The notes beneath the pieces were generated by a model. It worked only from the letters and a program-made list of their open reading frames with translations, was not told the DNA's origin and did no database searches. 64,000 nt of DNA, from NCBI GenBank assembly GCA_964016885.1, contig OZ024740.1, forward strand, positions 202,182,001-202,246,000, read 5' to 3'. Shown in pieces: positions 1,900 to 55,186 of this stretch. Position numbers and translations under genes: made by a program. Source of the stretch: Eledone cirrhosa (taxonomy: Eukaryota). Numbering within the stretch: position 1 is the first letter of the stretch; the number at the start of each line of letters is the position of its first letter.

Positions 1900-3970
1900 T
1901 ATGTGCTGAACATCCTTCTCTATATCTTCCAGTTCAATAAATTTGTTGCTGATTATTTTTGCACAATGAAACAAAGAGATTTGTTTGCAGCCTGGTGCAG
2001 TCTTCTTCTCAGTGGCTGAAGTAATGACAATTCACTTCAAATCCATCCCAGCAGAACAGTGTAATGTGTGTCCAAGATATTGCAAGTGTTATCATTTAAT
2101 ATTTCATAGTAGTATTGAGCCATCTAGATATATCACAGTAATATTGAGCCATCTAGATATATCACAGTAATATTGAGCCATCTAGATATATCACAGTAAT
2201 ATTGAGCCATCTAGATATATCACAGTAGAGCCATCTAGATATATCACAGTAATATTGAGCCATCTAGATATATCACAGTAGTATTGAGTCATCTAGATAT
2301 ATCACAGTAATATTGAGCCATCTAGATATATCACAGTAATATTGAGCCATCTAGATATATCACAGTAATATTGAGCCATCTAGATATATCACAGTAGAGC
2401 CATCTAGATATATCACAGTAGTATTGAGCCATCTAGATATATCACAGTAATATTGAACCATCTAGATATATCACAGTAATATTGAGCCATCTAGATATAT
2501 CACAGTAGTATTGAGTCATCTAGATATATCACAGTAATATTGAGCCATCTAGATATATTACAGTAATATTGAGCCATCTAGATATATCACAGTAATATTG
2601 AGCCATCTAGATATATCACAGTAGAGCCATCTAGATATATCACAGTAGTATTGAGTCATCTAGATATATCACAGTAATATTGAGTCATCTAGATATATCA
2701 CAGTAATATTGAGCCATCTAGATATATCACAGTAGAGCCATCTAGATATATCACAGTAATATTGAGCCATCTAGATATATCACAGTAATATTGAGCCATC
2801 TAGATATATCACAGTAGAGCCATCTAGATATATCACAGTAGTATTGAGCCATCTAGATATATCACAGTAGTATTGAGCCATCTAGATATATCACAGTAAT
2901 ATTGAGCCATCTAGATATATCACAGTAATATTGAGCCATCTAGATATATCACAGTAGAGCCATCTAGATATATCACAGTAATATTGAGTCATCTAGATAT
3001 ATCACAGTAATATTGAGCCATCTAGATATATCACAGTAATATTGAGCCATCTAGATATATCACAGTAGAGCCATCTAGATATATCACAGTAATATTGAGT
3101 CATCTAGATATATCACAGTAATATTGAGCCATCTAGATATATCACAGTAGAGCCATCTAGATATATCACAGTAGTATTGAGCCATCTAGATATATCACAG
3201 TAATATTGAGCCATCTAGATATATCACAGTAGAGCCATCTAGATATATCACAGTAGTATTGAGCCATCTAGATATATCACAGTAATATTGAGCCATCTAG
3301 ATATATCACAGTAATATTGAGCCATCTAGATATATCACAGTAATATTGAGCCATCTAGATATATCACAGTAATATTGAGTCATCTAGATATATCACAGTA
3401 ATATTGAGTCATCTAGATATATCACAGTAATATTGAGCCATCTAGATATATCACAGTAATATTGAGCCATCTAGATATATCACAGTAGAGCCATCTAGAT
3501 ATATCACAGTAATATTGAGTCATCTAGATATATCACAGTAATATTGAGCCATCTAGATATATCACAGTAGAGCCATCTAGATATATCACAGTAGTATTGA
3601 GCCATCTAGATATATCACAGTAGAGCCATCTAGATATATCACAGTAATATTGAGCCATCTAGATATATCACAGTAGCGCCATCTAGATATATCACAGTAG
3701 AGCCATCTAGATATTTCACAGTAATATTGAGTTATCTAGATATATCACAGTAATATTGAGCCATCTAGATATATCACAGTAATATTGAGCCATCTAGATA
3801 TTTCACAGTAATATTGAGTTATCTAGATACATCTTATCCAATACTTGAAAGTTGCTCACTTCCTCAGTCCAAGTAATTTTCAATATCCAGTGGTAGCCAG
3901 ATATTTTTAAAGCTCCAATCTTTCTCATAATACTTCTAGTCATGAGCCATACCTCGCAACCATAATGGAA
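1900..3970 (-). pseudogene. Decayed RTE-like LINE 3' fragment interrupted by the minisatellite
   Basis: Minus strand reads HYGCEVWLMTRSIMRKIG...ILKITWTEEVSNFQVLDKM before the array and LQYLGH...KKTAPG after it, typical of RTE ORF C-termini. Confidence 0.65.
2104..3830. repeat. 29-bp minisatellite GAGCCATCTAGATATATCACAGTAATATT with interspersed 24-bp deletion variants
   Basis: About 60 head-to-tail units read directly. Variants include GAGTC, GTAGTATT and loss of ATATT. Confidence 0.97.
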
Positions 3971-5050: not shown

Positions 5051-7069
5051 TCTCTTGATTCTGCATTTTGAAATTCTTCTCTAACTCTTCAACAGATTTA
5101 GCTATAAATATTAGGTTATTGTCATACAGGAGTTCTCAAAGACATCTGGTCTCAGTTGTTATGGTCTGAAGAACTATATAATAAACAGAAGCCTGAGAAT
5201 TGGGACTTGATGGACACCTAACTGCTCATTAAACTCCTCTGAACTTACTGTTAACTCTTACCTTGCTGACAGAATCTCGGTACATAGCTTATACAGAATT
5301 CACTTCGCAATCATTAAGTCCCAGGTTCAATCCCACTCTGTGACATGTTGGGTAAATATCATTTATCATAGCCTCAAGTTGACCCATACATTGACAATAA
5401 TTGGGTAGACAGAAACTGTTTGGAAGCCCATCAAATGGAATGTATTTGTAATTCAAAGAACCAGAGTCATTAGTGTCACACTGGATCTCCCACAGAATTA
5501 CATTATGTGTACATGTGTCTATGGAATGCTCAGCCACTTACACATTAATTTCATAAGCAGGTTGTTGTGTTGATCAAACAACTGGAACACATAGGTCCAT
5601 TCCACCAACTCTAGTGTTGTTACCCAGCCAAAGTATTTGTACTTGTGACCCTTACCTGGGAGGAATCAGGCTGAAGCTCCTCCCTATCTTACCCCTTGTA
5701 TGCAATTTACATCTACTCTCCTTAGCTCTAACATCTCTCAGATCACTCCAAACCTACCTTTGTGCCAACTCTGATGGTAACAGCTCTCATGTTTTTGCAC
5801 CAAACAGAGAGAGAAAAATCTCTGGCAGTGTTTTTGTTGTTTGGTATCTATTTTCTACATCTGAAAGGAAGAGAGTTGGTACGATCGTTTGATGATGATC
5901 AAGAGGTTGAGACACATGGCCAGATGTTTCCATCTGGCGCCCAACTATCATGGACAGCACTGACAAGGTAGATGTTAACCTTGTATACCCACTTAGTGTT
6001 TATCATCAATTTGATTGTCATGTTGTTGACGCTTCTTTTTTACAGCATGGAGAAAGTATGTTGCATAAGACCATCTACACAAGAGATGGTGTCATCATCA
6101 TCATCACCATTTTACAACCGTTTTCCACATCAGCATGTATTAGATGGGTTGCTGTGGTCTGAAATTAGACAGGTCAAATGACCATGTCATTCTCATATAC
6201 TACATACTACATTTTGGTGGCGTTTACAGTTGGATGCTTGTCTTAATGGCAACCACTTTATGGTATTTACTGGGTGCATTTTATTGTAGCACCAGCACTA
6301 ACCCTTTATTATGTTTACTGGGCATATTTTATTATGATACCAGGCTTTACAGGATGTGCTGGGTGCATTTTATTATGTCATCTGCACTACCACTTTCCAG
6401 TGTACTGGGTGCATTTTATTGTGGCGCCAGCACTACCACTTTATAAAGAGTACTAGGTGCATTTAATGTTGATAAGTTCTTTACAGAGTGTACAGGGTGC
6501 ATTTTATCATAGCACCAGTACTACCGCTGTACAGTGTGTACTGGGTGTATATTAGGATGTATTTTATCATGGTACCAGTACGTCCATTTTACACTGTACT
6601 GGATGCATTTTATCATGACACAAGTACTTTAGAGAGTGTACTAGGTGTATTTTATTATGGTATCAGCACAACCCCTCATGATTATAAGGTCATGAGCTTG
6701 ATATCCAGACTGGGCAGCAAATTGTGCCCTTGCATAAGATACTTTATTTTGTGTAGCGTCAGTCCACTCAGCTGGAAAAAATAAGTTGTTATATGACTGG
6801 TATCAAGCTGTAGTGGACTTTGTCTTTCTATTGGGCATCATTGGTGTGGTGAGGAGAGTTTGACATTCATAGGTAACTGATGGTTTATCCCCATACATCC
6901 AGGCTTATGCTTTGGAGAGGAATTTTCCAGGTGCAAACTCATGGTCGGTCATGACTGAAGGCTTCATCATAGTAGTTGAAGCATATATTGAGGTATGATT
7001 CAAGTGTCAGTGAACAGGTGAATAGAAACCTAGTCTTGTCTACAGGAGAGTATAAAGTGGTATTATTTA

Positions 7070-7390: not shown

Positions 7391-7977
7391 CTGGAAATAA
7401 TTGAACAATCAGTCATTAGATTAATGTTAAATAAACAGGTAAAAAATAAAAATAACTGAATGCAGATTACATATAGGGTTGTCAGAGACCAAGCCAGTTC
7501 TTAATCAGAGCTACTGTCCTCTCATATGGGCCAGGTACCACATCTGATTTACATACATTCTGGTTTTGGCATGGGCTCTAGAGCTGAATGATCTTCCTTT
7601 CACTAATCATCATCATTATTTAACACCCATTTCCCTGCCCAACAAGGGTTGGAAGGGTCATCACAGACCAAGTCAGTACTTGGAGCCTGTGTACTCAAGT
7701 GAACCGGTGGCGACATCTTGCTTACAAAAATTCCTGACCTTTACAGAGTGTACCTTGAATTTTATAATGGCACCAACACTAGTGAAGTGTCATGTCCTTG
7801 ACACAAATAAAAAGTCTTCTTAGCCCTTTATGTGGCCAGTTTTCTACAGGTGGATGCCCTTTCTATCATCAAACTGGGTGCATTTTACTGTGTCACCAAC
7901 TCAAGAGAGATTGATGTTCCCTTGATACAATTGATGATTCTTCTCAACCTTTTGTTTGGCATAGTGTGTGTATGTGT

Positions 7978-8146
7978 CTTGGGTTCAATCAGGGCTAACC
8001 ACAGTAAGTAAGGTACTCAATACATTAGTAGAATGTATATAATAAATTTAATATAGAAATGGCTTCTACAAGACTATAACTGTTTCATTCAAAGGAAATC
8101 ATCAGGAAAGCTTTCCTGATGATTTTCTTCAAATGAAACAGTTATA
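7978..8146 (-). mobile_element. Short fold-back element with hammerhead-like cores in DCAF8 intron
   Basis: Imperfect palindrome 8075-8146 centred on AAG|CTT, each arm carrying CTGATGA-N12-GAAAC. The tail TATTGAGTACCTTACTTACTGTGGTTA is shared with 45580-45710 (+), 54735-54865 (-) and 38790-38860 (-). Confidence 0.65.
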
Positions 8147-8444
8147 CTTAGATATAATAACAATAGTAGTATAAAATATAAAATAGAAGTGAGTATACCT
8201 CACTATTTTTTATGAATGATTAGAAAGAGATCCTGAATAACAGATCTTGTATGACATACAATGAATGATTTTATTTACTGTTCACAATCATTCAAAGGAC
8301 AGACACAGATACAGACATAGACACAGACATATAGACAGACACTGACACACAGAGGCTAACAAGCACACACACACACGCATAATAGAAACATATAAAGGAA
8401 GAACTACATAGAAATGGTAAGTAAATTAAGATTATTGTACTAAC

Positions 8445-18504: not shown

Positions 18505-21500
18505 CAGCAATCCGGACTGCCCGGCACTATAAAAGACAGATTCTATAAGACACTGATGCTCACTACCTCCCAAATAACCGACAGTGACTATATAATTATT
18601 GCAGGCGACCTAAATGGTCACGTTGGACAACATTGTGACGGCTACGACGAAATCCATGGAGGCTATGGGTTTGGTACTAGAAATGAGGAAGGCTCCAGAA
18701 TCCTGGAATTCTGTGACGCAAATAACCTAACTATCTGTAACACTAACTTAAAAAAACGTGACAATCACCTGATCACCTATAGATCGGGGAAACACACAAG
18801 CCAGGTAGATTATATCCTTACCAGAAGACGTGACAGAGTGTCTGTTGTAAACACTAAATCCCTCCCCCATGAAGAATGCACCTCCCAACATACTGATAAT
18901 TAGCGACCTAATAGTCAGGACAAGATGTACTAGACAGCAGAAGAGGACTATCCTCAGGAGAAAAATATGGAAGCTAAAGGACCCCACAGCCAGAAATAAA
19001 TTTAAAAGCATACTACTTGATGCTTTCGACAGTAAGGAAGAGCAATTAGAGTCGTACAATATAGAGGAACAGTGGGAATTCCTGAAAGCAAACCTGCTGA
19101 TGGCGGCAGACAAAGACTGTGGCTGGAGCAGGCCTGTAGGCAGGAGGAGAGTAATATGGTGGTGGAACAGTAAGGTAGAGGGGTCAATTAAGGCCAAAAA
19201 GCAGGCTTGGAAAGTATGGCGGGATGGGGGAAGTAGAGAAGACTATCAAGTGGCCAGGAGGGAAGCTAGGAGACAAGTGTACTTCGCAAGAAGGGAAGCA
19301 GAGGAAAGAAAGTTCAAGCATGTTCTACAATGCGAGGACCAAAAACGTGAGGTGTTCAGGATTGCTAGGCAATGTGTCAAGGAAAACCGTGATATTGTCG
19401 GGGAGAAGTGTGTACTTAACGATGATGGCGTACTTGCCATCACCGACGCTGATAAGAAGGTAGCTTGGAAGTGTCACTACGAAAGGCTACTAAATGAGGA
19501 GAATAAATGGGAGAAAGACAGTCTCCCCCACATCGACCCAATAGAGGGACCAGCAGTGTTAGTCGAGGGTAGTATAATAAGTAAGGCAATCAAAGATATG
19601 AAGACGGGTAAGGCGGCTGGGCCTTCGGAAATAGTTGCTGAGATGCTGAAGGCATCTGGAACGGTGGGACACACCATGGTCACCCGGATAGTTAACCAAG
19701 TCGTACAGAATGGGGTTGTTCCAAAGGACTGGCGTAGCAGCATCATCGTTAACTGTTATAAGAGTAAAGGAGATGCCCTAGATAGGAGTAACTATAGAGG
19801 CATTAAATTAATCGACCAGGTCATGAAGGTCACGGAAAAAGTAATAGCGCAACTAATCAGAGAGAGAATTGATCTAGATGAAATGCAGTTCGGGTTTGTG
19901 TCAGGCAAAAGTACCACAGACGCTCTTTTCATTGTACGACAACTACAGGAGAAGTACCTAGCTAAAAGTAAACCCCTATACTTAGCTTTTGTCGACTTGG
20001 AGAAAGCCTTCGACAGAGTCCCCCGTTCCATTAGCTGGTGGGCTCTTAGAAAACTAGGTGTTGACGAATGGCTTGTGAGAGCTATACAAGCCATGTATAA
20101 AGAAACAGTCAGCAAGGTTAGAATTAACAACGAATATAGTGAAGAGTTTAGCGTAAAAGTTGGTGTCCATCAGGGCTCTGTTCTTAGCCCCCTACTATTT
20201 ATTATTGCCCTTCAGGCTATAACAGAGGAGTTCAAGACCGGCTGCCCATGGGAACTCCTATACGCAGATGACCTAACTGAATCAATGGCCGAGTTAGAGA
20301 AGAAATTCCAAACATGGAAGCAAGGCCTAGAATCAAAAGGCCTTAAAATTAACCTGGCTAAGACTAAAGTTCTAGTTTGTAAGAAAGAAAATAAGGCGGC
20401 AGTCCCTTCCGGGAAATGGCCATGCTCAGTGTGTAGGAAAGGCATAGGTAGAAACTCCATTTTATGTCCCAAATGCAAAGTATGGGTGCATAAAAGATGT
20501 AGTGGGATCACAGGTAAGCTAACTAAGAACATAGATTTTACATGTGGCCGGTGCTCTGGTGCAATAAGTAGCAGCAAGTGCCCACAAAATACTAGCTCTT
20601 TCAACTGCGCAGAGGGTTCTATAGAAATAGTGGACAGCTTCCGTTACCTGGGTGACAAAATCAGCAGTGGGGGAGGGTGCTCTGAAAGTACAGTAGCTAG
20701 AGTCAGAACTGGATGGAAAAAGTTCAGAGAGCTTATACCACTATTAGCCGCTAAAGGGTTCTCCCTAAAAATGAAAGGCAGGTTGTATGATGCCTGCATA
20801 CGAACAGCAATGTTGCATGGCAGTGAGACCTGGGCATTGTGTGCAGAGGATATACGCAGACTAGAGAGGAACGAAGCTTGCATGCTCCGCTGGATGTATA
20901 ATAGTAATATACGTGAACGGCAAAGCATAAACGAACTAAGGAAAAAATTAGAAATAAGAGGGATCAGATGTTGTTTACTCGAGAGAAGGCTACGTTGGTA
21001 TGGTCACGTGATGCGCATGAAAGACGATAGCTGTATAACAAAGTGCAGGGCAATAAAGATAGACTGTAGCCACGGAGTAGGCAGACCCAGAAAAACCTGG
21101 GATGAGCTGATAAATTCCGACCTCACACACTTACACCTCTCCAAGACAATGTTACTGGACCGAGACCTTTGGCGGTACTCAGTAATAGAGAAGACCCGCC
21201 TTACCTAAATACAAAGTAACACCTACTATAGTCAGTAGGCATCTCTAACAAAATACACCCCTGTCCCACTACCCCCACCCCATCCACACCGCCCCTTTCA
21301 ATGTAAAGTTATGTTGGTGCCACAACATCCAGGCCGAAACAAATGAGATCGTGTAGGTGTCACGACAAAAAAACACACAGTCCACGCTGTAATGTGGCCG
21401 TGTAGGCAACACGGTAAAAACCTCCCAGCCCCACACTGTAAATGTGGTTGGTGTTAGGAAGGGCATCCAGCTGTAGAAAACCCGCCAGACAGTCCTATGC

Positions 21501-24500: not shown

Positions 24501-25133
24501 TTTGTATGTTGAAGAGGATAAAACTGAAGTGAAATACAACCAGTGTAAGTGTGTGTGTTGCTATTAGCAGTATGACCTGTTCTGATAGGCACGGACTGTG
24601 TGGTTAAGTAGTTCACTTCTCAACCACGTGGTTTCAAGTTCAGTCCCACTGTGTGGCACCTTGGGCAAATGTCTAGTGAGTGAAATTTAGTGTATAGGTA
24701 TATATGTGTGTGTACATGTGTATTTTTTACGTTTAGAGTGTGTAATTTAGTGGTTCAACAAAAAATAAATATTGGTGTTGATATGATTGACTAGATTCTT
24801 GGAAGGTGGTACCCCAACATGGCCACAATCTAATGACTGAAACCAGTCAAAGAATAAAACACACAATTTCTCATCAAGAATCTTGCAAAATAAACACAAA
24901 ACTGATGATAAACTAATAGTAATTGTTTCTACTTTTGGCACAAGTCCAGCAATTACCCCCAGTGCATTACTGGTACTTTATTTTATCGACCCCAGAAGGA
25001 TGAAAGGCAAAGTTAACCTCAGCAGGATTTGAACTCAGACCATAACTATGCTGCAAAGCATGGCGTCCGACCTACCGATACTGCCAATCCACCACCCTTG
25101 ATAAACTAATAATAGTGATAGTTAAATACTCAC

Positions 25134-26136
25134 CAATTCGGTTAAAATTAAGAGCATTCACACAGCCATTATGGTACTCCATCTTATACTGCAAGGTTAA
25201 ACGTTGCACCATTTGTAAACTTGAGTTAACCTTTTCTCTAAAAAGACTTGGAGGAGTTTTTGTTGAATGTCCAAACTCACGAGAGCGGAGATCATATATT
25301 GCTTTCCAATTATGTTTCGGTATTTTGTCAGAATCATAGTCCATATCACTTTCATCCTCATCTTCTTCATCATCAACATCATCTTCCTCATCTTCGTCAG
25401 ATGAAGAAGATGAAGAAGACAACAAAGAAGACAGCTTTTTACTGCCCGTCTCTTCGTTTTTATCATCATCGTCCTCAACATTGTCATTGAGATCTTCGTA
25501 ATCCATCTCAGCTTTACCACCTTCATCACTATTAACAGGTGAGGCTAGGATGGGTTTCCCCTTTTCTTTCTCTACACATTCAGAAGTGCCATCTTCAGTG
25601 TTCACAGTATCTAAGTCCATCTTTTCTGCACTACACACTAATTTACACGAGCCTTCTTTATCATTCAGCTCAGAATCCTGCACATCCAAAGATGGTAAAT
25701 CTTCCTCATCTGACACAGAAACTTTTGATTTGCCATCAAATTTTATATCACCAACAGAATTTGTGAAAGAGCAAGCAGCGCTGTCTGTCAGTGACTCACT
25801 GACACTTTCACTACAGTCTGATAGAATTGGTCCTTCCTGTGCACTTGTGCTTGCCGGAGATTTCTCAAAGTCAATCCCACTGTCATCTTTTTTCAATGAA
25901 GGTAGAGACAGATCAGGTTCATGGGAGATTTTTTCCTCCATAATTGCCAGATGAGTGGGGATTTTAGAAGTGGCATTATCATTTTTCGCCTGATCTTCGC
26001 TTATTTTCTCTGTAACATGGTTATCTGAAGTCTGACTGGAGTCATGAAACTTGTCTTCATTGTTGAAGTGATTATTGCCTTTTTTATTGTCTACATCACA
26101 GTCACTGGAGCTTATGACTAGACTAGATTCAGCCAT
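25134..26136 (-). CDS. DCAF8: DCAF8 first coding exon (acidic low-complexity N-terminus plus start of WD40 repeat 1)
   Basis: ORF MAESS...DEDEEDD...KHNWKAIYDLRSREFG...VQRLTLQYKMEYHNGCVNALNFNRIG, resembling the DCAF8 'HxGCVN' start. Phase-1 donor GTGAGT at 25133. Probable acceptor (ttttctttttatag) at 26341-26340, so about 200 nt of 5' UTR lie in the same exon. Confidence 0.92.
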
Positions 26137-27366
26137 GATGGTGAACTGGAGTCTAGTTTGTCACAGATTATCAGATTATCGAGAGATAAACCAAACAGAA
26201 CAAAAGTTAGGATACATTTGTGTGCTGTGGTTATAAAGCTGTCACAATTACAGATTCAGTTTTTCCAATAGCCTTTCTGTAGCTGGGGGCCTCCAGAACA
26301 CATAGTATTCATAATGACATCTGGAGTATAAAATTCAACCTATAAAAAGAAAAAGTTATACATTTAAAAAAGTTAGTTTTTATAAAATGCACCACTACAC
26401 TCAATAAAGTGGCAGTGTTGGTGCCACAATAAAATACATGTAGTACATTTGCTAAAGTGGTAGCGATGGTGCCACAATAAAATGTACCAATTACATTCTA
26501 TAAGTAGCAATGCTGGTGCCACAATAAAATGTGTGATCATTCTGATTCTTAAGATGGAGCTGTGAAGGCTTTGAAATGTTAATATACACAGATTTAGGAA
26601 AGCTACATTTCCAAACAAAGCATAAACAACTAATAAGGAAATAAGAAAAATCCTTAATAAAATGATCAAACAGGAGCACAGTTGCATTTTCAATATAACA
26701 TGTTTGAAAGAAACGCTGTTCCATATTTATACACACACAGATATATATACTGTAAAGTGGTCGTTTTAGTGCCACAACAAAAGGTGCCCAGTCCACACTG
26801 TAAAATGGGCATATTGGTGTCACAACAAAAAGTGCCCAGTCTGCACTGTAAAGTGATCATTTTGGTGCCACAATAAAAAGCACAGTCCACACTGAAAATG
26901 TGGTTGGCGTTAGGAAGGGTATCCAGCTGTAGAAACCAAGCCAGAAACAGTTCTGTATGAACAAGACAGTCATCTGATCTGACTTGTCTCACAATGGGAC
27001 AATTCGTCTAACCCATACTTGCATAGAAAAATGGATATTAAACTGATATATATATATATATATATATACTAAGTCATCACTGAGAAAGTTCACAGTGAAT
27101 ATCATCAGAATTAAAACCATAAAAAAATAACTAATCTAAATATTACATTTCTCCAACAGTATTTTACCAAACTGTTTTGTAAAAGACAAAGGTAGTAGCT
27201 CCTTTTGGCTTCCTGACAACACTTATATTATGAAATATTTGGCATAAAAACAAACTGCTTTGCACTTTGGAGTTATTTGTATCAGTTTCCAAACCTTAAC
27301 CTTCAATTACGACATCAACACACGCAATGTTATCAATTCCTTCATCCCTGATTTAAGAGAGTACCC

Positions 27367-37545: not shown

Positions 37546-38068
37546 ATTAGCTTGAGTTTTTGCCTTTCTTCAACATATACACACAGCTGATGGCTTGCAA
37601 CCTAAATATATACACAAACATATAACTGTGTATACGAGAATGGGTGTGCTAAACCTCTTCTTCTCCTCCTTATTCACTTTATATCTTTCTCTTTCACTTC
37701 CTCCTTCAACGTTTTTCAGTTTTTCTTTTTCTCTCTCCACCCTCTTCTTCTATTAACTACCTCTCACTCTCCCTCGTTTCTCACTCTCCTGCACTGCTTA
37801 CCTTCTTTGTTTACGTTACACGTTTCATACCTCCCACTCTCTCTGTCAGTCTTACTAACTCTCTGTCAGTCTTACTAACTCTCTTTATGACTCCATCTCT
37901 CTTTCGTCTCAAATACACTTTCTTTTCCCCTCTCATTGTATTTTTAACCCTCCCTCCTATTGTTCACGCCCTTCTTCTTCCCTCTTCTCGTTACCATAAT
38001 TACACGTCTTCCACCTAACTCACTGTCTACTTACACGTTTGTATGTGTATATATATATATATATATAT

Positions 38069-38265
38069 ATAGGAAAAAGTATGACCCCGACGGCAGAGCT
38101 CAAGCCGTTTCGACGGCTATTTCTGGACAGTCCAGAAATAGCCGTCGAAAAGGCTTGAGCTCTGCCGTCGGGGTCATACTTTTTCCTATTTCCCACTCTA
38201 CTACCCTAAGTATTGAGTACTCTGGTGCGTTATGGTCCATTTGGTTCCTTGCCACATTTCCTTTG

Positions 38266-38270
<5 letters not shown>
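38069..38270 (+). mobile_element. Fold-back short element, copy A (121-bp palindrome plus 3' tail) in (TA)n
   Basis: Palindrome 38069-38189 centred on CTGGAC-A-GTCCAG with one mismatch. The right arm continues through CTCTACTA..TATTGAGTAC to (TA)n. Confidence 0.85.
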
Positions 38271-38305
<35 letters not shown>

Positions 38306-38355
38306 ACACTTGCACAACCATAGAAACATGCACATACATACTTACACACACACAC

Positions 38356-38382
<27 letters not shown>

Positions 38383-38386
<4 letters not shown>

Positions 38387-38583
38387 ACGAAGGAAATGTG
38401 GTAAGGAACCAGGTGGACCATAACGCACCAAAGTACTCAATACTTAGGGTAGTAGAGTGGGTAATAGGAACGAGTAGGACCCCGACGGCTGAGCTCAAGC
38501 CGTTTCGACGGCTAATTCTGGACGTCCAGAATTAGCCGTCGAAACGGCTTGAGCTCAGCCGTCGGGGTCCTACTCGTTCCTAT
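38383..38583 (-). mobile_element. Fold-back short element, copy B (120-bp palindrome plus 3' tail) in (TA)n
   Basis: Perfect palindrome 38464-38583 centred on CTGGAC|GTCCAG. Its tail is a diverged reverse complement of the copy A tail. Confidence 0.85.
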
Positions 38584-38605
38584 ATATATATATATATATA
38601 CACAT

Positions 38606-38694
<89 letters not shown>

Positions 38695-41338
38695 AATATA
38701 TATATGTATACACATAATATATATACACATATATATGAACATACACATACACACATATATATACATACACATATACATATATATATGTGTGTATGGATTG
38801 ATTCCCAATGAGTTTCGGGAGTTGACCACAGTTTAAAAAGGTACTCAATATGTTGGTAGTGTATAGTCATCTTTCTCGTTAACATAATTACAGTCTTCCA
38901 CCTTCTTCAGAGAGAGGGGAGAGGGAGAGATACTACTGGTAATGATGTAAGCCAGTACAACCTGTTCAGGGTTGGGTCGTTGTGTTACTAAATAGATGAG
39001 GTGGGTGATTTTAGTCACCTTGCGGAGAGCTGGTAAATGGACCTCCGTTGGTTTCGATGGTGAGTGTTTCAGATGTTCGATTAACAAAATAGCATGCCTA
39101 TGAAATTAACATGACTGAGCATTCCCCAAACACTTGCATTCTCAGGGAGATTCAGCATGACACCGTGTCTGACAAGGCTGGCTCTTTGAACTATAGGTAC
39201 TGTCTATCCGTTGAGCTTCCAAATAGTTTTGAACTACGCAGCTTTACACACAAGGCCAGACGTTTGCCAGACAATGAGATTGAACCCAGGACCTAATGAT
39301 TGTGAAGCGAACTTCTTACCCCTTCAGCCATGCCATGTTTACACTCTGCTGGATCTTCTTCTTCGCCCACTTATTCCGGAGAGGGTTGTGGGTGCAGAGT
39401 CCTCAAACACTCCTTCCAGCGGGTCCTGTCAGAAGCAACCGTCTCCAACTGATCAAGCTGAATCCCCATACGTGACCAACCAAGCTCATGGATGTTATCC
39501 AAATATCTTGCTCAGAGTTTATTTACCCCTGGGTTTCCTGCCAGTTAAAATCTGTCCAGCGATTCTTTCCTGAGACATTCTAACCCCATGCCCATAGTAT
39601 CGGAGTTGTGATCTCTCAATTCGGAGAAGTAGCAGCTCTACCTAGAGGGATACTTTGATCTCCGAGCTATGGATTCTATCGAGTAATGTTACTCCAAAGA
39701 CCCTTTGGAGGAACCCCATTTCGGCCACTTTATTCACAATCATATTCTTTCACTCTGTAGGATGAAAAACAAAATATTTTTCATCCCACATGGTGTCTAA
39801 ATTTGCCACATGCTATTGTCTTTTAAAATATACAAAGACCAGGCTCTACAATCAATAAAAAATAAACACTTTGGACAATATAGTACTAGATTTAGAACAG
39901 ATTCAAAATAGATGCTATGTAGAGATCTACTACCTCTGTTGACTATAAAAGGTTTCTCCCTACAAACAAAAGGTTGCCTGTATATGATGTGCGATACTGC
40001 ATGGTAGTGAGACATGGGCAGAGGATATGTGAAGGCTGGAGATAAATGAAACAAGCATGTCGTTAATGTGCATCGAACGTTAATGTGCATGAACGACAAA
40101 GCATGGAAGAACTGAAAGACAACATGAGTATAAGAGGATACAGATGTAGTGTGCAATAGAGAAGACTGCACTGGTATGGACATGTGAATTGCATGGATGA
40201 TTATCATTGAGCAAAGAATTGCCACAGAATCCCAGTGGAAAGAAGTTACAGTAGAGGAAAACCAAAGAAGACCTGGGTGGAGGTGGTGAGAGCTGATCTC
40301 AAACCACTGAAGCTCACAGATGATGAAGAAAAATTGCGAGTGGAGAGATGCTGTACGAGAAAAGACTCATCCAACCCAAGCAAATATGGAAAAGGGAATG
40401 TAAAATGATAATGATGATGGGGATGGTCATGGTGTGAATACCTTCGATCATAGGTTGAACAGAAAGCCAACCTGTATATATAATTGATTCAACTGAACAT
40501 CCAATTAAGTTACAAGGCCCCTTACTTGAAACACATTTGAAAATTTCATTGTAAACATTTTTTGGGGCAGGAAGATGCACATCCTGCCCCTGGCCAACGG
40601 GGCCCTGTGCTTAAGCACACCTAAGCACAATGGTAAATCTGGCACAAGGCTTGGATAACCAAGAGATCGATAAAAGAAAGTATCAACTGGAAAAAGATGA
40701 GCACTGAAGGTCAATATGATTGACTAAATCCTGCAAGGGTAGTACTCCAGCATAGCCTTAGTCAAGTGACTAAAACTAGTAAAAGACTGAAATAATGTCA
40801 TCCATTACAACAAACTTGGTCGATTTCCTCTATTGCTGCATGTACCAAATAATGAAGGACCATGATGAATTATGAGACACTGTCAGGCCTGACTAATCCA
40901 TAACATCGGGGAAAACCAGATGTAAAATGATAATGATATTGATACAAATATAAACATGTACGCACATACACACACAGATATACAGACACATGCACACAGA
41001 TATACATTTCCATATACATACATACTCATACTAATACAGATATACACACACACACACAGATGTACACATCACACACACAGATGTACACATACACGTGTGT
41101 GTGTATGTGTGTAACAATATGAACTTAACAGGGTACATCTTAATTCATCTTAATCACAGTATAACTCTTTGAAAGAGCTCAACAAAGAATTATAAATAAT
41201 TATTTAATGCAGTTAAGTCTCTAATAACAAAATAGACTAGAAATAATTAACATTTGATAATCCTTTTTTAAGAAATGTTATGCTCAAAATGATATACTCA
41301 TCATGGGGTCCTTTTTGAAATGTTGGGTCATGTATTAA

Positions 41339-45363: not shown

Positions 45364-45761
45364 CATATTCTTTAGCCAGTTTCAGCCATTAAACTGCAGT
45401 CATGCTAGGGCACCATCTTGATTTAGTTAATCACTATAAACCCAATACTTATTTTTCAAGTCTGGTAATTATTTTAACGATCTCTTTATGTTGAACAGCT
45501 AATTTACGAGACATAAACACAGACACAAACGTAAACAAACATGCGCACACATTCACACACACACACACACATATATATATGATTTCTTTTGAATGAAACA
45601 GTTCTAGTCCCGTAGAAGCCATTTCTATAATAAACGTGATGTTTACACTCTACTAATGTATTGATTACCTTACTAACTGTGGTTACCCCCGATTGAACCC
45701 GGGACTCACACACACATATATTTATACAGGTTCGCAATCTCTTATCCGAAAGATTGTAAAC

Positions 45762-47360: not shown

Positions 47361-49310
47361 GTTTGAATATGTGTAATAAGGCCAAAACAATGCAGGTATG
47401 GACATAGAAAAAAGGAATGCAATAGTGAAAGATATTGATGAGAATTCGTCTTTCACCTTGAATTTATTTAAATGTCCTTAATTTTCGAGATAATATCTCT
47501 TCTTCGGAGGGAAGTAAAGGTCTCAAACCAGCGTCTTTAAATCTCTAGCCAAGCCATGCTGACCGGAAATAGTATAGAGTATCTGTTCTAACTCTAATAT
47601 CAAAGAATTAAAATTAGGTGGATAAAGAGTAGTCTCCCTTTAAGAGGGGTTTGTTTAGGGTTTTTTTTAAATTTTTTTTTTAAATTTTATATACGTGCCT
47701 GTATATGTGTGTGGGAGAATGCATGAAGGTGTAGGTATGTGGGTGTGTGTGTGTGAGTGTGGGAAGATAGGGCTAATCGTAAAAGTGGGGGGTAGGTGTT
47801 ATCTGGTGTTAGAACTGGTTTTGTGTGTGTATGTGTGAGAGAGAATAAGTGGAGGTGTAAGCGTGTGTGTGTGCGCGTGCGTGTGTGTGGGGTGTGTAAA
47901 AATGGGGCTAGAGGCCCTATCAGGTTATAAATTGGGTGTTGAGCTCTAGTCTATTATTGATTGGTGGATGTGTTCTATCTATAATAAGTGCTTCCTTAAT
48001 TCTAAGATTGCCGAGGTTTCTTTCCTTAGTTTCTATCCTAACTGTTATGTTTTTATCGGTGTTTTTGCATTTAACTAGGTGTTTCTTAAATGAGGAAGCG
48101 TTAGTATTGAGGTGTTCTTTTATTCTGTTGTTGTTTCTTCACTGAAGTGTGGGAGCTTCAGGAAACAAGTGTTAGTGCCTCGGGTGTGGTGTCCTCTGTT
48201 CTTTCTGGCACGGTTTGTGGTGGATGTCGTGTATCCGTTCAGTTTGAGAAGAAACAACAACAGCCATCCGCAGAGCCATCAGACGAGAGGGACTGGATAT
48301 CCAACTGGCCCACTCGGGTCCTTCTCTGCGCGGACGGCTGGCCAAGAGACACTCCACCAGACATGACAACTGCTGCAGACTAGCCAACTGCCCCATCAAC
48401 GACACAGACCTATGCCACCAGGCTTACGTAGTATACAGACTAGAGTGTGACAAATGCAACAACTTCTACATAGGTAGCACCACCAGACCACTCCACATAA
48501 GAATAAAAGAACACCTCAATACTAACGCTTCCTCATTTAAGAAACACCTAGTTAAATGCAAAAACACCGATAAAAACATAACAGTTAGGATAGAAACTAA
48601 GGAAAGAAACCTCGGCAATCTTAGAATTAAGGAAGCACTTATTATAGATAGAACACATCCACCAATCAATAATAGACTAGAGCTCAACACCCAATTTATA
48701 ACCTGATAGGGCCTCTAGCCCCATTTTTACACACCCCACACACACGCACGCGCACACACACACGCTTACACCTCCACTTATTCTCTCTCACACATACACA
48801 CACAAAACCAGTTCTAACACCAGATAACACCTACCCCCCACTTTTACGATTAGCCCTATCTTCCCACACTCACACACACACACCCACATACCTACACCTT
48901 CATGCATTCTCCCACACACATATACAGGCACGTATATAAAATTTAAAAAAAAAATTTTTAAAAAACCCTAAACAAACCCCTCTTAAAGGGAGACTACTCT
49001 TTATCCACCTAATTTTAATTCTTTGATGTTAGAGTTAGAACAGATACTCTATACTATTTCCGGTCAGCATGGCTTGGCTAGAGATTTAAAGACGCTGGTT
49101 TGAGACCTTTACTTCCCTCCGAAGAAGAGATATTATCTCGAAAATTAAGGACATTTAAATAAATTCAAGGTGAAAGACGAATTCTCATCAATATCTTTCA
49201 CTATTGCATTCCTTTTTTCTATGTCCATACCTGCATTGTTTTGGCCTTATTACACATATTCAAACGTTTATACCTCATTACACAATGCTTCAAGTGAACT
49301 ATAACCTCCT

Positions 49311-51266: not shown

Positions 51267-53090
51267 CTACATTTTAAATTTATATTTATATTTAAACGTT
51301 GAGTTCAATCTATGTCTGCAGCAACTGAATAAATTGTTCCTTAAATTAAGGGAATTTTTGGACTTTAATATAAAGAATATTTCTTCAATACAAAGATCAC
51401 AATTTTCTGAAGAGGAATTGAAAGGAGTAGCTTATGAAATAATATTCCAAGTCATCGAATATTTAACATTATCTCGTTTTAGGTCCCATAGTAGGCTAGA
51501 TAGCGAAGTTGAAGATTTTTTGTTTGGATCTGTGAAAGAATTTTTATGATTATTGAAGCGAAATTTAAATTCTGTAGAGGTAGAACCAACATAGTTAAAT
51601 GAATTTAAATTAGTTTTAGCATTACAATTGTACACTACATTTTTAGCTAAGCAGTTGTTATTTAACGGACAGTTAGATTTATTTCTACAGTTACAGTTAT
51701 TCAATTGAATATTGCTTGGGTTATTATTGGTATTTTGGTTAGGTTTTAAATTTCTATTATTAATTCTATTAATATTTTGTACTAAATTTTTGGTGGACGA
51801 GTAAGTTAATTTTATAGTGTGTCTATTAAAAATTGAGTAATATTTATGTGTTCTAGGGAAGCGTTTGTCAAGAGCTTTAAAGAATAGTTTAGCAATAGGG
51901 GTTTTAATATTTAGTGAGAAAGGGGGAGCAAACCATAATATATTTCTAGTTCTATTTCTTTTTCGGCTTTTGGAATTATTGTAATGTTTTCTATTATAGT
52001 TGTTAAAGTTGTTACCATAATTAAAATTGTTATTATTTTGGTTAGTTTGCTTATTATTATTATTATCAATGTATTTAATTTTATTTCTATATCCAGCTCT
52101 ACCTAACGCTTCGTTGTAATACTGCGCTTTTTCATCAAATATATTTTTATTAGATGAAATTCTTGAAATTCTTTCTTGAACAGAGTTCACTATAGTATTT
52201 TTAACAGATCTGGGGTGATTAGAGTTAAAATTAACATAATTCAAGTTCTCATTTAGTTTGTGAAATGGATAATGAAGACATGTGTTGAGATTTAGTGTTA
52301 CGTCAAGAAAATTGACTATTTTATGGTTATTCTCTATTTCTACTTTTAGATTAAGGTAATTAAAAAATTGTATAATTTGTTTTCTTTTTCTATTTAGTTC
52401 ACAGCTATTATTTTCTATAAGTAAAAGCATGTCATCACGATATAAGCCTCCGGTTACACCTGGTATTTTTCTATGTAGCGAATTAACTATAAATAGGCCC
52501 ACAAGGTCCGTTACCTGAGCTGAGTCTGATGATCTCATAGTTATGTCGAAATTATTATTTCTATCTGCCCTAGTCCAGAGTTGGTTATTAAATTCTATCA
52601 ATGTTTTCCTTGCCGATAATATAATGTGCATTTCATTGCTAGTTAGGTCTGTATGTTTAAATGCGTAATTTAGTGCCTTATTCGGTAGATTAGGAGTGAT
52701 AGATGAATAGTAGTTAGCAATATCCAGCTGAATAAACTTATTATTATAATTATATTTAATTTCTTTAAACCAATCGATAACCTCACTAGTCCCTTTCCAT
52801 AATTTTAAGTAAAATAAATTAGGTAAGTTTTTAATTTGTTGTATTACCCTGTCTAGAATATTTTTGCTAAGTTTGCCCAGGTCAGATTTAGATGGTGCAA
52901 TTAATCTGACTGGTAAATCATTTTCAAAGTTTCTTTTGTGATCCTTCATATTGATTTTAGGTTTCCTAGGCATGAAGGGTTGTGTTTTATTCTCAATGTC
53001 TAATTCATGCATTATACAAGATGCATCTCTATTCAGTTTTTCAAGTTCGTCCTTATTTGCTACCTTGTACTTTTTCCTTAGTTCTTTCAA
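51267..53090 (-). pseudogene. PLE RT + GIY-YIG ORF with one nonsense codon (TAA at 51434-51432)
   Basis: FIQLDIANYYSSI, GGLYRDDML, VNFLDVTLNL, SNHP, CNCRNKSNCPLNNNC, VVY...YVGST..FKFRFNNH. After the TAA the frame continues ATPFNSSSENCDLCIEE...LNLRNNLFSCCRHR to TAG at 51269-51267. Confidence 0.92.
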
Positions 53091-53094
53091 TATA

Positions 53095-53970
53095 AGGTCG
53101 TTAACAGACAGTGTTCAAAGAGTGGTTAGAGGCTGCGTCCGATGTCAGTCCATTGATCCCGCTCCGGGTGTGCACGAAACGGGAAGCCTCCTGGTGGATC
53201 GCGACTGGAAGCGATTGGCGGTGGATGTAACACACTACCGACAAGGAACATACCTCTCAATGGTCGACTGTGGACCGGGGCGGATGGCGATATGGAGGGA
53301 GATGAAGACTGGAATGGCTGAGGAAATCACGCGGACGTTGAGATAGGTGTTCTTGGAGCGGGGCCCTGTGGTCGAACTGCTGATGGACAACAGCGCAGCG
53401 TTCCTCTCGGAGGCGCTGAGGGAGATGCTCGATGGATGGAAGGTGGACCATTTCTTCAGAGCAGTGTACAGGCCGAGGGGAAATGGAATCGTGGAGCGAC
53501 ACCACCGGACGATCAAAGCAATGGCGGAGCGGGGCCACATCTCACCAATGGAGGCAGTGTTCTGGTACAACATGTCTCCTCGGGTGGGACAGGTTGAGGA
53601 ATCGGTGCCACACAGAGCAGTATTCAGATACAAGTGGCGGCACCCGTGCACGCCACCGCAACGGCCAGTGGAGAGAGAGAATGCATTCGCGCAGGTGGGC
53701 GAAGAAGTCTAGGTTAAGCCCCCAGATGCACGTTGCACATCTCAATGGGGAAGGGGAACGGTGACGGCCGTAAATTCCCAGAACAATGTGTCCGTGGACG
53801 GAGTACCACGTCATGTCCTGGATGTCCATAGAAGTACTGTGTCAACGGACTCCAAGGAAGAGGAAACCCAAACTGCCGCCCCAACACTGTGGAGATCGCA
53901 AAGAAGTCGCAAACCACCAACCTGGACAGCAGACTTTCATATGCAGCAAGACGAGGGGGAAATTTATCCT
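53095..53970 (+). pseudogene. Gypsy-type LTR retrotransposon integrase fragment (internal stops)
   Basis: VVRGCVRCQ (zinc-binding), LAVDVTHY, LMDNSAAF, YRPRGNGIVERHHRTIK (DDE core). TAG stops at about 53344 and 53710. Confidence 0.88.
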
Positions 53971-54361: not shown

Positions 54362-55186
54362 ATGTTCAATTTGTCAAGCTATTTAAACGTATGTTATTAC
54401 TCTCAGGACCTACCCTTATTGAATGCTTTGCTAACTCATTCATATTGTAGGTCGACTTTGCTTGCCCACAGCCAAAGATTCGATTTTACTAAGGCTCCAC
54501 AACACGCTGTAATGTGGCCGTGTAGGTAACACGGTAAAAACTTCCCAGTCCACACTGTAAACGTAGTTGGTGTTAGGAAGCGCATCCAGCCGTAGAAAAC
54601 CAGCCAGACAGTCCTATGCGAGCAAGACAACCACTCTTGCCTCAAGTGGGAAAACTTCCGTCCAAACCCAGGCAAGTGTGGAAAATGGACGTTAAACAAT
54701 GATGATGATGATGATGATGATATAGGTAAGTTATTCCGGGTTGAATCGGAGGTAACCACAGTAAGTAAGGTACTCAATACATAGCAGAGTATAAAAGTTT
54801 TAATATAGATGAGAATCTACAGGACTAGAACTGTTTCATTCTTTAGAAATCATCAGGAATCTGGCTTTCCAAAATAAATGTTGTGGTATTTATATCTTTT
54901 CAGGTGGTACGAGAGGGTGGGGAGTGGGATGGGTGAAGGTCATTGGTTGAAAGAAAAGGGAATTCATTAAAAGCTAATTCTTTAAGGCTATAATTTGTAT
55001 TTAGAGTGACCAAGGCAGAAAGAATTCTATAAACAAGTTCAGAAATGGGTGCCACTCCTTATTTTTAAGTTTCTCTTAGGCTAACAATGCCTATATTTCA
55101 GGTGTCTATAAGATGGTTGGGGTCGGTCATGGTTGATGGATTTAAAGAAAAAGGAAATTCTTTAAAAGCTAATTCTTTAAAGCTCT

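Follow-up and report, generated by a model that had tools for sequence, protein, structure and literature searches.

How do two diverged copies of a repeat come to fold back at nearly the same point and to end at the same place? The question is raised by positions 38069 to 38583 of a 64,000-nt stretch of the Eledone cirrhosa genome (contig OZ024740.1; hereafter the window), where a first-pass annotation had noticed two palindromes facing each other across a microsatellite. We examined the window and searched the 3.0-Gb genome. Judged by comparison with intact elements, the two copies, A and B, are almost certainly independent insertions, from two subfamilies, in which a Penelope-like element (PLE) of the Hydra clade left short, non-coding copies of its 5′ leader. 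The best model, which we consider probable, is that such hairpins arise by twin target-primed reverse transcription from two fixed internal sites, S1 and S2, stopping at a likely capped RNA 5′ end and followed by head-to-head end joining.

Two leader insertions in one microsatellite

The palindrome of copy A (plus strand) consists of 60-nt arms at 38069-38128 and 38130-38189, with one mismatch and a single central A at 38129. That of copy B (minus strand) consists of 60-nt arms at 38464-38523 and 38524-38583, with no mismatch and no spacer; two palindromes in diverged copies are thus present as first described. Both short arms end in ATAGGAA against (TA)n. The features of the locus are as follows.

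38047..38068, no strand: (TA)n flank of copy A (from the sequence)
38069..38128, minus: copy A inverted arm, 60 nt, tail-less, outer end at S1 (CCTAT) flush with (TA)n (from the palindrome; S1-flush ends in 66 of 74 sampled inverted arms)
38129..38189, plus: copy A direct arm, running from the central A (A+1, where transcription likely starts) to S1 (from positions in the intact unit, where S1 is +61)
38129..38189, plus: copy A 3′ half of a putative hammerhead (stem II 3′ strand, GAA, stem III, GTC), cut predicted after 38169 (after +41 in the intact unit; leader fold)
38190..38268, plus: copy A tail, 79 nt, S1 to S2 (…GTTA), then (TA)n (in tandem parents the tail continues into 5′ untranslated region and open reading frame)
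38269..38384, no strand: (TA)n/(CA)n microsatellite, target common to both insertions (from the sequence)
38385..38463, minus: copy B tail, 79 nt, S1 to S2 (from comparison with the intact unit)
38464..38523, minus: copy B direct arm of 60 nt, of subfamily B (5 differences from the intact unit in locus L209 over the 139-nt long arm)
38524..38583, plus: copy B inverted arm of 60 nt, with its end at S1 next to (TA)n (from the palindrome)
38584..38786, no strand: (TA)n-rich flank of copy B (from the sequence)

The two copies differ at 5-6 of 60 positions in their short arms and at 12 of 139 in their long arms. Compared with the intact leader in L209, the 139-nt long arm shows 5 differences in copy B and 15 in copy A. 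The core of each copy is as originally described, but the elements continue inward through their tails, so that copy A spans 38069-38268 (+) and copy B 38385-38583 (-). Similarly, a fold-back hairpin, AGCCGTCGAAACGGCT, had been reported inside each arm and is perfect in three of the four, but the long arm of copy A carries a C>A change at 38151. The copies lie tail to tail with 116 nt of microsatellite between their tail ends (38269-38384), and the nested larger inverted repeat that had been pointed out is therefore real as a layout. It is, however, incidental, a consequence of one (TA)n tract having received two insertions, since different subfamilies share one microsatellite and close pairs among the genomic match places of a 26-mer of the tail occur in convergent, divergent and tandem orientation alike. 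Mini-hairpins also adjoin the (TA)n ends of two long inserts, L221 and L225.

A Hydra-clade parent element

The genome contains 29,193 exact matches to the tail 26-mer and none to its reversed control. When the genome was searched with the long arm, 1,963 first-look candidates were obtained; the 69 matches listed comprise 40 scored copies and, next to them, 29 short inverted partners. Four of 30 loci continue upstream into a common 3′ untranslated region, one of them (L019) also into a GIY-YIG endonuclease, and a protein search (150 of 13,148 candidates scored) returned many 784-codon open frames with an identical score. A tandem array yielded the intact unit of 3,531 bp, whose open reading frame (ORF) of 717 amino acids encodes a reverse transcriptase (RT) and, at its C terminus, a GIY-YIG endonuclease. 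Relative to A+1 of the motif AGTCCAG, S1 lies at +61, S2 at +140 and the ATG at +232. The PLE origin that had been suspected, and the longer parents that were to be looked for, are thus both found.

The 717-residue protein carries YRDD and VIY…YIG, as in the single-ORF RT and GIY-YIG arrangement of endonuclease-containing (EN+) PLEs (motifs, compared by eye with published Hydra proteins). The element likewise has the pseudo-long terminal repeats (pLTRs) of PLEs, with tandem or partial tandem copies, an inverted 5′-truncated copy and a one-ended tail (L085, L208-L227); L085 shows the textbook layout of an inverted 5′-truncated arm, partial tandem, full ORF, tail and (TA)n. The marks of the Hydra clade are RWK, DKT, CxCx5C, the lack of CCHH, and CxxC and CxH flanking E and N (Craig et al., 2021, PMC8557442). 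In our protein these correspond to RLRWR at 35 (with R for the K of RWK), DKT at 117, CNCPDRSIC at 572, CNLC at 670 and CKH at 698, again without CCHH; a single Cys lies between VIY and YIG, and insertion into (TA)n is as in the clade. Pfam searches with ORF fragments and with the intact ORF, and a search of PDB sequences, gave no match.

Other class assignments were rejected. The Naiad/Chlamys clade is ruled out by an endonuclease that is C-terminal and not N-terminal. A DNA transposon of the miniature inverted-repeat transposable element (MITE) type, named at the outset as the outcome that would overturn the PLE reading, is ruled out by asymmetric ends, unique junctions and an RT-encoding parent (target site duplications being unreadable inside (TA)n). 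A non-long-terminal-repeat retrozyme is ruled out as well, the short copies being head to head with only the 3′ half of the ribozyme and not head to tail with complete hammerheads.

Head-to-tail arrays of three to four intact units at ~3.53-kb spacing occur in L209-L210, G000:C1:91476075-91487154 and C2:51278387-51285895, implying long read-through or circular templates. An example of an intact unit is at G000:C1:437195500-437215300. Two further PLE sequences were observed in the window. A 560-codon frame at 51432-53114 (-) belongs to another Hydra-type PLE, is 41% identical to the 717-residue ORF and has an Asn-rich insert between RT and endonuclease; a GIY-YIG fragment at 48248-48706 (+) has two Cys between its GIY and YIG parts, as in canonical (non-Hydra) PLE endonucleases.

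Ends, junctions and leader RNA

To characterize the insertions we took 99 of the first 100 listed 26-mer match places (flanks of 1.5 kb at 30 loci; at most others ~3.5 kb on the upstream side), with natural long copies as the reference for measuring their arms. An inverted arm is present in 74 of the 99. In 66 of these 74 its outer end reads CCTAT followed by AT or AA, in agreement with the fixed short-arm end that had been proposed; one carries the tail, and the remaining seven stop either a few bases off or beside other repeats. The tail ends at S2 against TA in 87 of the 99 copies. S1 and S2, 79 nt apart, both read TAT, a 3-nt match to the (TA)n target, and genome-wide S1 is followed by (TA) at 19,784 places versus by the tail at 18,747. 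The same rule extends to full-length inserts, of which 19 were fetched (20 stretches): each of the 15 with both ends visible has one S1 end and one S2 end, and the ORF is carried by one arm, which can be either, or by both; in the other four a single end is visible.

The inner ends of the arms are concentrated 54-67 nt upstream of S1 (51/99 direct and 53/74 inverted arms), where the ending rate is 0.059 per nt versus 0.003-0.011 elsewhere; we refer to this boundary as the wall. Arms of at least 70 nt are found in 11/99 direct and 2/74 inverted cases. At the junctions, the arms overlap by microhomology in 30 inserts, are blunt in six and are separated by inserted bases in 38. The fixed fold point of the first-pass annotation therefore holds in so far as inner ends pile up at the wall and the exact junction of copy B recurs (four inserts among the first 100 matches listed), but the wall is a zone with scatter, none of the 74 sampled inserts has a 60/60 or 61/60 junction, and long copies fold kilobases away. 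That each palindrome was formed anew is supported by 71 distinct junction strings in 74 inserts, unparsed junctions being counted as distinct. Contigs of three public DNA runs contain the strand-switch joints, and in them depth, which is not copy number, steps up ~20-40-fold over the leader.

The wall lies 29-31 nt behind a TATA-like box in the context TTAGTC/TCAGTC, and its sequence setting suggests that it is likely the capped 5′ end of the RNA, A+1 of AGTCCAG being the putative transcription start. An untemplated G is an accepted mark of a capped template (PMC6425141). A G precedes AGTCCAG at 6,014 genomic matches, and no long copy examined has G there; A, C or T precedes it at 24,978, A in 3 of the first 100 listed, i.e., ~750. 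On inspection of 42 G cases in 40 stretches, neither the partner arm nor a duplicated piece of an arm nor the flank could be the source of the G in 23. At the next position inward, non-templated G is less frequent than C or T (G 18, C 38, T 44 among the first 100 matches listed). Runs of A/T of 13-16 nt at junctions right at the wall (L063, L128) suggest reiterative or terminal-transferase addition by a telomerase-related RT, PLEs being the sister group of telomerase.

Upstream of the wall, long copies carry ACCCC-TTGANAA-G, which together with the downstream GAA, stem III and GTC gives a predicted type I hammerhead. The hammerhead 5′ half that had been thought missing is thus absent from the short copies, which hold the 3′ half only, but present in the long copies as this TTGANAA variant. 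Unconstrained folding of the intact leader gives this topology, a three-way junction, at the energy minimum (z -0.58); the leader folded alone is not unusually stable (z 0.46 to -1.52). Among 60 cores parsed from 64 distinct long arms, 51 have U3-A8 and seven C3-A8, none has G8, and position 7 can be any base. In 15 aligned arms 87.8% of cells are paired, without compensatory change. The intact unit contains no canonical CTGANGA core, and Rfam returned no ribozyme family at the gathering threshold on the window or at E<=10 on the intact unit. On the basis of this modelled fold the U3-A8 variant is a putative hammerhead whose predicted cut, at +41, is not at the wall. A secondary pile-up of ends is seen at the predicted cut (19-23 nt; 6/99 direct and 3/74 inverted arms) and is confounded by deletions between two GCCGTC repeats. 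Hairpin-ribozyme, pistol, twister and hepatitis delta virus ribozyme readings of the leader were dropped as their pairing partners are lacking. A predicted stem pairing the start of the tail with GTAGTAGAG past S2 is kept in seven of eight tandem junctions checked and is a candidate protein-binding structure.

A sister family supplies a second case. The likeness in layout to a CTGATGA..GAAAC family elsewhere in the window was correctly seen: that family is a sister PLE with the same arrangement of short arm, fold and tail, and its Hydra-type leaders carry the canonical CTGATGA hammerhead.

7975-8200, minus: sister leader (the copy at ~8.1 kb), itself a fold-back
45560-45710, plus: sister leader
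54715-54890, minus: sister leader

A 27-mer of the sister tail has 15,616 genomic matches, and in L234 this tail runs into a related ORF with 47-60% identity. The sister wall, placed by inspected copies and genome base counts (a strict pattern caught four arms), lies 30 nt behind TATAAATA, a canonical TATA box, and upstream of its hammerhead rather than inside it. The base before this wall is G in 1,928 cases versus A or T in 422, and nine of 12 inspected G cases are not explained by the partner arm. Since the sister wall is upstream of the whole ribozyme and yet at the same distance from the TATA box, the wall tracks the promoter and not RNA structure.

Twin priming weighed against its rivals

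The model starts from the observed layout of the ~3.5-kb parent unit (TATA-like box, putative A+1, S1, S2, ATG, RT and GIY-YIG ORF) and from the insert ends, all of which, where examined, fall at S1 or S2 abutting (TA)n, with one of each in two-ended inserts. By analogy with the Anolis PAc protein in vitro, the protein would nick both (TA)n strands, and each 3′-ATA end would pair with UAU at S1 or S2. On RNA from the element's own promoter both complementary DNAs (cDNAs) would reach the 5′ end after ~61 and ~140 nt, the cap often being copied as an extra C. Read-through tandem RNA would instead give cDNAs of kilobases and hence the classic full-length inserts with inverted pLTRs. Trimming of both cDNA 3′ ends before end joining would produce the variable junctions. 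Without promoter and ORF, the short products are predicted to be dead on arrival. We also lean, if only slightly, towards a broader proposal: PLE integration would be obligate, programmed twin priming in which each cut strand is assigned one of two fixed RNA sites, so that the inverted pLTR and the one-sided tail come from a single reaction. As the sites lie in the mRNA leader, abortive copying to the cap would be the commonest outcome and would seed tens of thousands of 60-bp hairpins; with the promoter inside a variant hammerhead, leader RNA would be unable to self-cleave and read-through RNA could.

Whether one cDNA or two make the palindrome can be asked of the arms themselves. In a snap-back or self-priming scheme a single cDNA (or an antisense template) would fold near the wall and serve as its own template; antisense-template self-priming is the published proposal for Adineta vaga (PMC3846280). 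The near-identity of arms within an insert fits this scheme, as it does two cDNAs copied from the same template: they differ at a mean of 1.7 of 45 nt versus 7.7 between inserts, the comparison that the first-pass annotation had called for, and an 8-nt subfamily tag is identical in 29 of 38 ungapped arm pairs (shuffled mean 5.7, maximum 15; six of 44 pairs dropped for gaps). So do the 30 microhomology overlaps, some at the short palindromes AATT or TCGA. However, a tailed cDNA that folds back cannot yield an inverted arm with 5′ sequence absent from the tailed arm, and this is the commoner asymmetry: in 27 of 74 inserts the 5′ extent of the inverted arm exceeds that of the direct, tailed arm by 10 nt or more, against 10 inserts with the converse, and in L130 an inverted arm of more than 1 kb stands against a direct arm of 153 nt. 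Snap-back also leaves unexplained the exact stop of copying at S1. Five clean inserts (L064, L098, L110, L141 and L150) have a near-full inverted arm and a direct arm that stops at S1, the abutting pattern expected when both primers share one RNA. Moreover, in L062 each arm bears its own extra G. We consider snap-back unlikely. A mini-hairpin at L009:1600-1790, with ~130 nt of RT coding sequence from the element itself in its loop, suggests template jumping during joining.

Twin priming could be correct and the wall still be a ribozyme cut or a stall of the RT at RNA structure, in this case a hairpin within loop II of the hammerhead. Folding predicts an A/U-rich hairpin immediately 5′ of the wall, and many arms extend to 62-67, but ending rates are low across the stronger G+C stems II and III, the predicted cut at +41 is 20 nt from S1 and away from the wall, and neither the sister wall nor the position-specific extra G in both families is expected from a stall; this alternative appears quite improbable. 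A self-amplifying non-autonomous family, MITE-like or like short interspersed elements (SINEs), could spread from hairpin masters whose arms are kept alike by gene conversion. Such a family would be short, very numerous and bounded by inverted repeats, as is observed, and a few junctions recur. The diversity of junction strings, the asymmetric ends with a 79-nt tail on one side, a sequence that is the leader of an RT-encoding element, an end rule that holds also for inserts of several kilobases and the loss of the promoter from short copies make it very improbable. Neither homogenisation after insertion, as first suggested, nor gene conversion is needed, because the arms of an insert share subfamily alleles and the A/B differences are alleles that predate insertion. 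Finally, palindromes beside (TA)n are prone to assembly or sequencing artefacts in the form of fold-back chimeras at microsatellites. We give this almost no credence here: the arms carry independent point mutations, the ends obey element-specific rules and the joints recur in the public contigs.

Several observations weigh against twin priming up to a capped end. The sample covers the first 23 Mb of one chromosome and required an intact 26-mer, and the 15 full-length inserts represent one young subfamily chosen for intact ORFs. No inverted arm was detected in 25 of the 99 copies (some long, some with damaged anchors, some truly solo), and 37/99 direct arms, like 19/74 inverted arms, end short of the wall zone. 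The TATA-like box of the main family is non-canonical (TATTTAAA/TATTTATT/TATTCATA), and TTAGTC/TCAGTC is a putative match to the initiator consensus. In 19 of the 42 G cases the G could come from the flank, the partner arm or a duplicated piece of an arm. Furthermore, T or C stands before A+1 in 97 of the first 100 listed non-G arms, a set in which arms that end at 62-67 are mixed with read-through copies and bases of the junction. Since T or C is what most arms reaching A+1 have at this place, the position of the wall is blurred by a few bases, and the model has to assume heterogeneous start sites or A-tailing. Post-insertion deletion within the palindrome could also inflate the asymmetry of arm lengths.

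The literature already describes inverted pLTRs, tails on one side, insertion into (TA)n, the Hydra clade and a pair of internal start sites. Our family resembles the Hydra-clade PLEs (PMC8557442) in its C-terminal GIY-YIG, RW-type and DKT motifs, CxCx5C linker, lack of CCHH, CxxC/CxH, (TA)n targeting and a hammerhead, here putative, near the pLTR end. It differs in its unit of 3.5 kb versus <3 kb, clear pLTR tandems, intact young copies, a putative hammerhead core with U3-A8 and a loop II of ~40 nt, and ~30,000 copies that are mostly leader-only. Hydra-1_Obim is alike by eye in its N-terminus and RT, but its hammerhead and N-terminal sequence differ, which makes it a separate family; two leader motifs of ours have no match in the available supplement of PMC8557442. 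The Anolis Poseidon PAc protein nicks and extends both strands in vitro and is a predicted dimer; its RT starts at two internal sites, which form the borders of the tail (Frangieh et al., 2024, PMC11167929). These sites lie downstream of a hammerhead (a putative one in our family) and the target is AT-rich, as here, whereas the PAc tail is 30-40 nt and inside the ORF start and ours is 79 nt and upstream of the ATG; the available account contains no assignment of strands to sites, no explanation of the inverted arm and no cap stop. Adineta vaga Penelope (PMC3846280) shares head-to-head inverted pLTRs, a tail at one end only and junction palindromes, explained there by antisense-template self-priming; the present family has its tail on exactly one end per two-ended insert and its junction at the likely sense-strand start. 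In L1 twin priming (PMC11702581), two primers from two target ends likewise act on an RNA and give an inverted product with a microhomology junction. The second L1 primer site is variable and the cDNAs barely overlap, whereas here the sites are fixed and the overlap is usually full, which makes the palindrome. U3-A8 in place of C3-G8 is known from the Schistosoma Cercyon PLE hammerheads (PMC4209133), which also share the pLTR location, type I topology and a palindromic loop III. Unlike these, the hammerhead predicted here has a full stem III of 5-6 bp and a long loop II that would hold the likely transcription start.

The origin of the tandem and inverted repeats and of the one-sided tail of PLEs is a named open question in PMC8557442 and is left open in PMC11167929. 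Within the available parts of the non-subscription literature, including PMC13282606 (an O. vulgaris repeat annotation) and 10.64898/2026.07.22.740005 (a retrozyme preprint), we found no published account of the rule of one S1 and one S2 end, of a cap-limited leader hairpin or of a promoter inside a hammerhead. If true, the twin-priming model would account for the long-puzzling inverted repeats. With thousands of natural reaction products and intact young elements, the family makes this mechanistic question directly testable; for the existing in vitro PLE assay the model predicts one start site per strand, an inverted join and a cap stop. Most copies are non-coding leader hairpins that repeat annotation would class as MITEs or unknown repeats. 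It is tempting to speculate that intronic copies form 60-bp double-stranded RNA, a possible substrate for editing or small RNAs.

Among the other features of the window, a large acidic exon at 25072-26160 (-) resembles a WD40 protein in its last stretch and may be similar to DCAF8; the two fold-backs may be situated in an intron of this gene or upstream of it. An RT frame of a long interspersed element (LINE) at 18851-21208 (+) has 785 codons and an internal Cys-rich insert, a similar frame being present in L078. A tandem array with a 29-bp unit in ~62 copies occupies 2099-3833.
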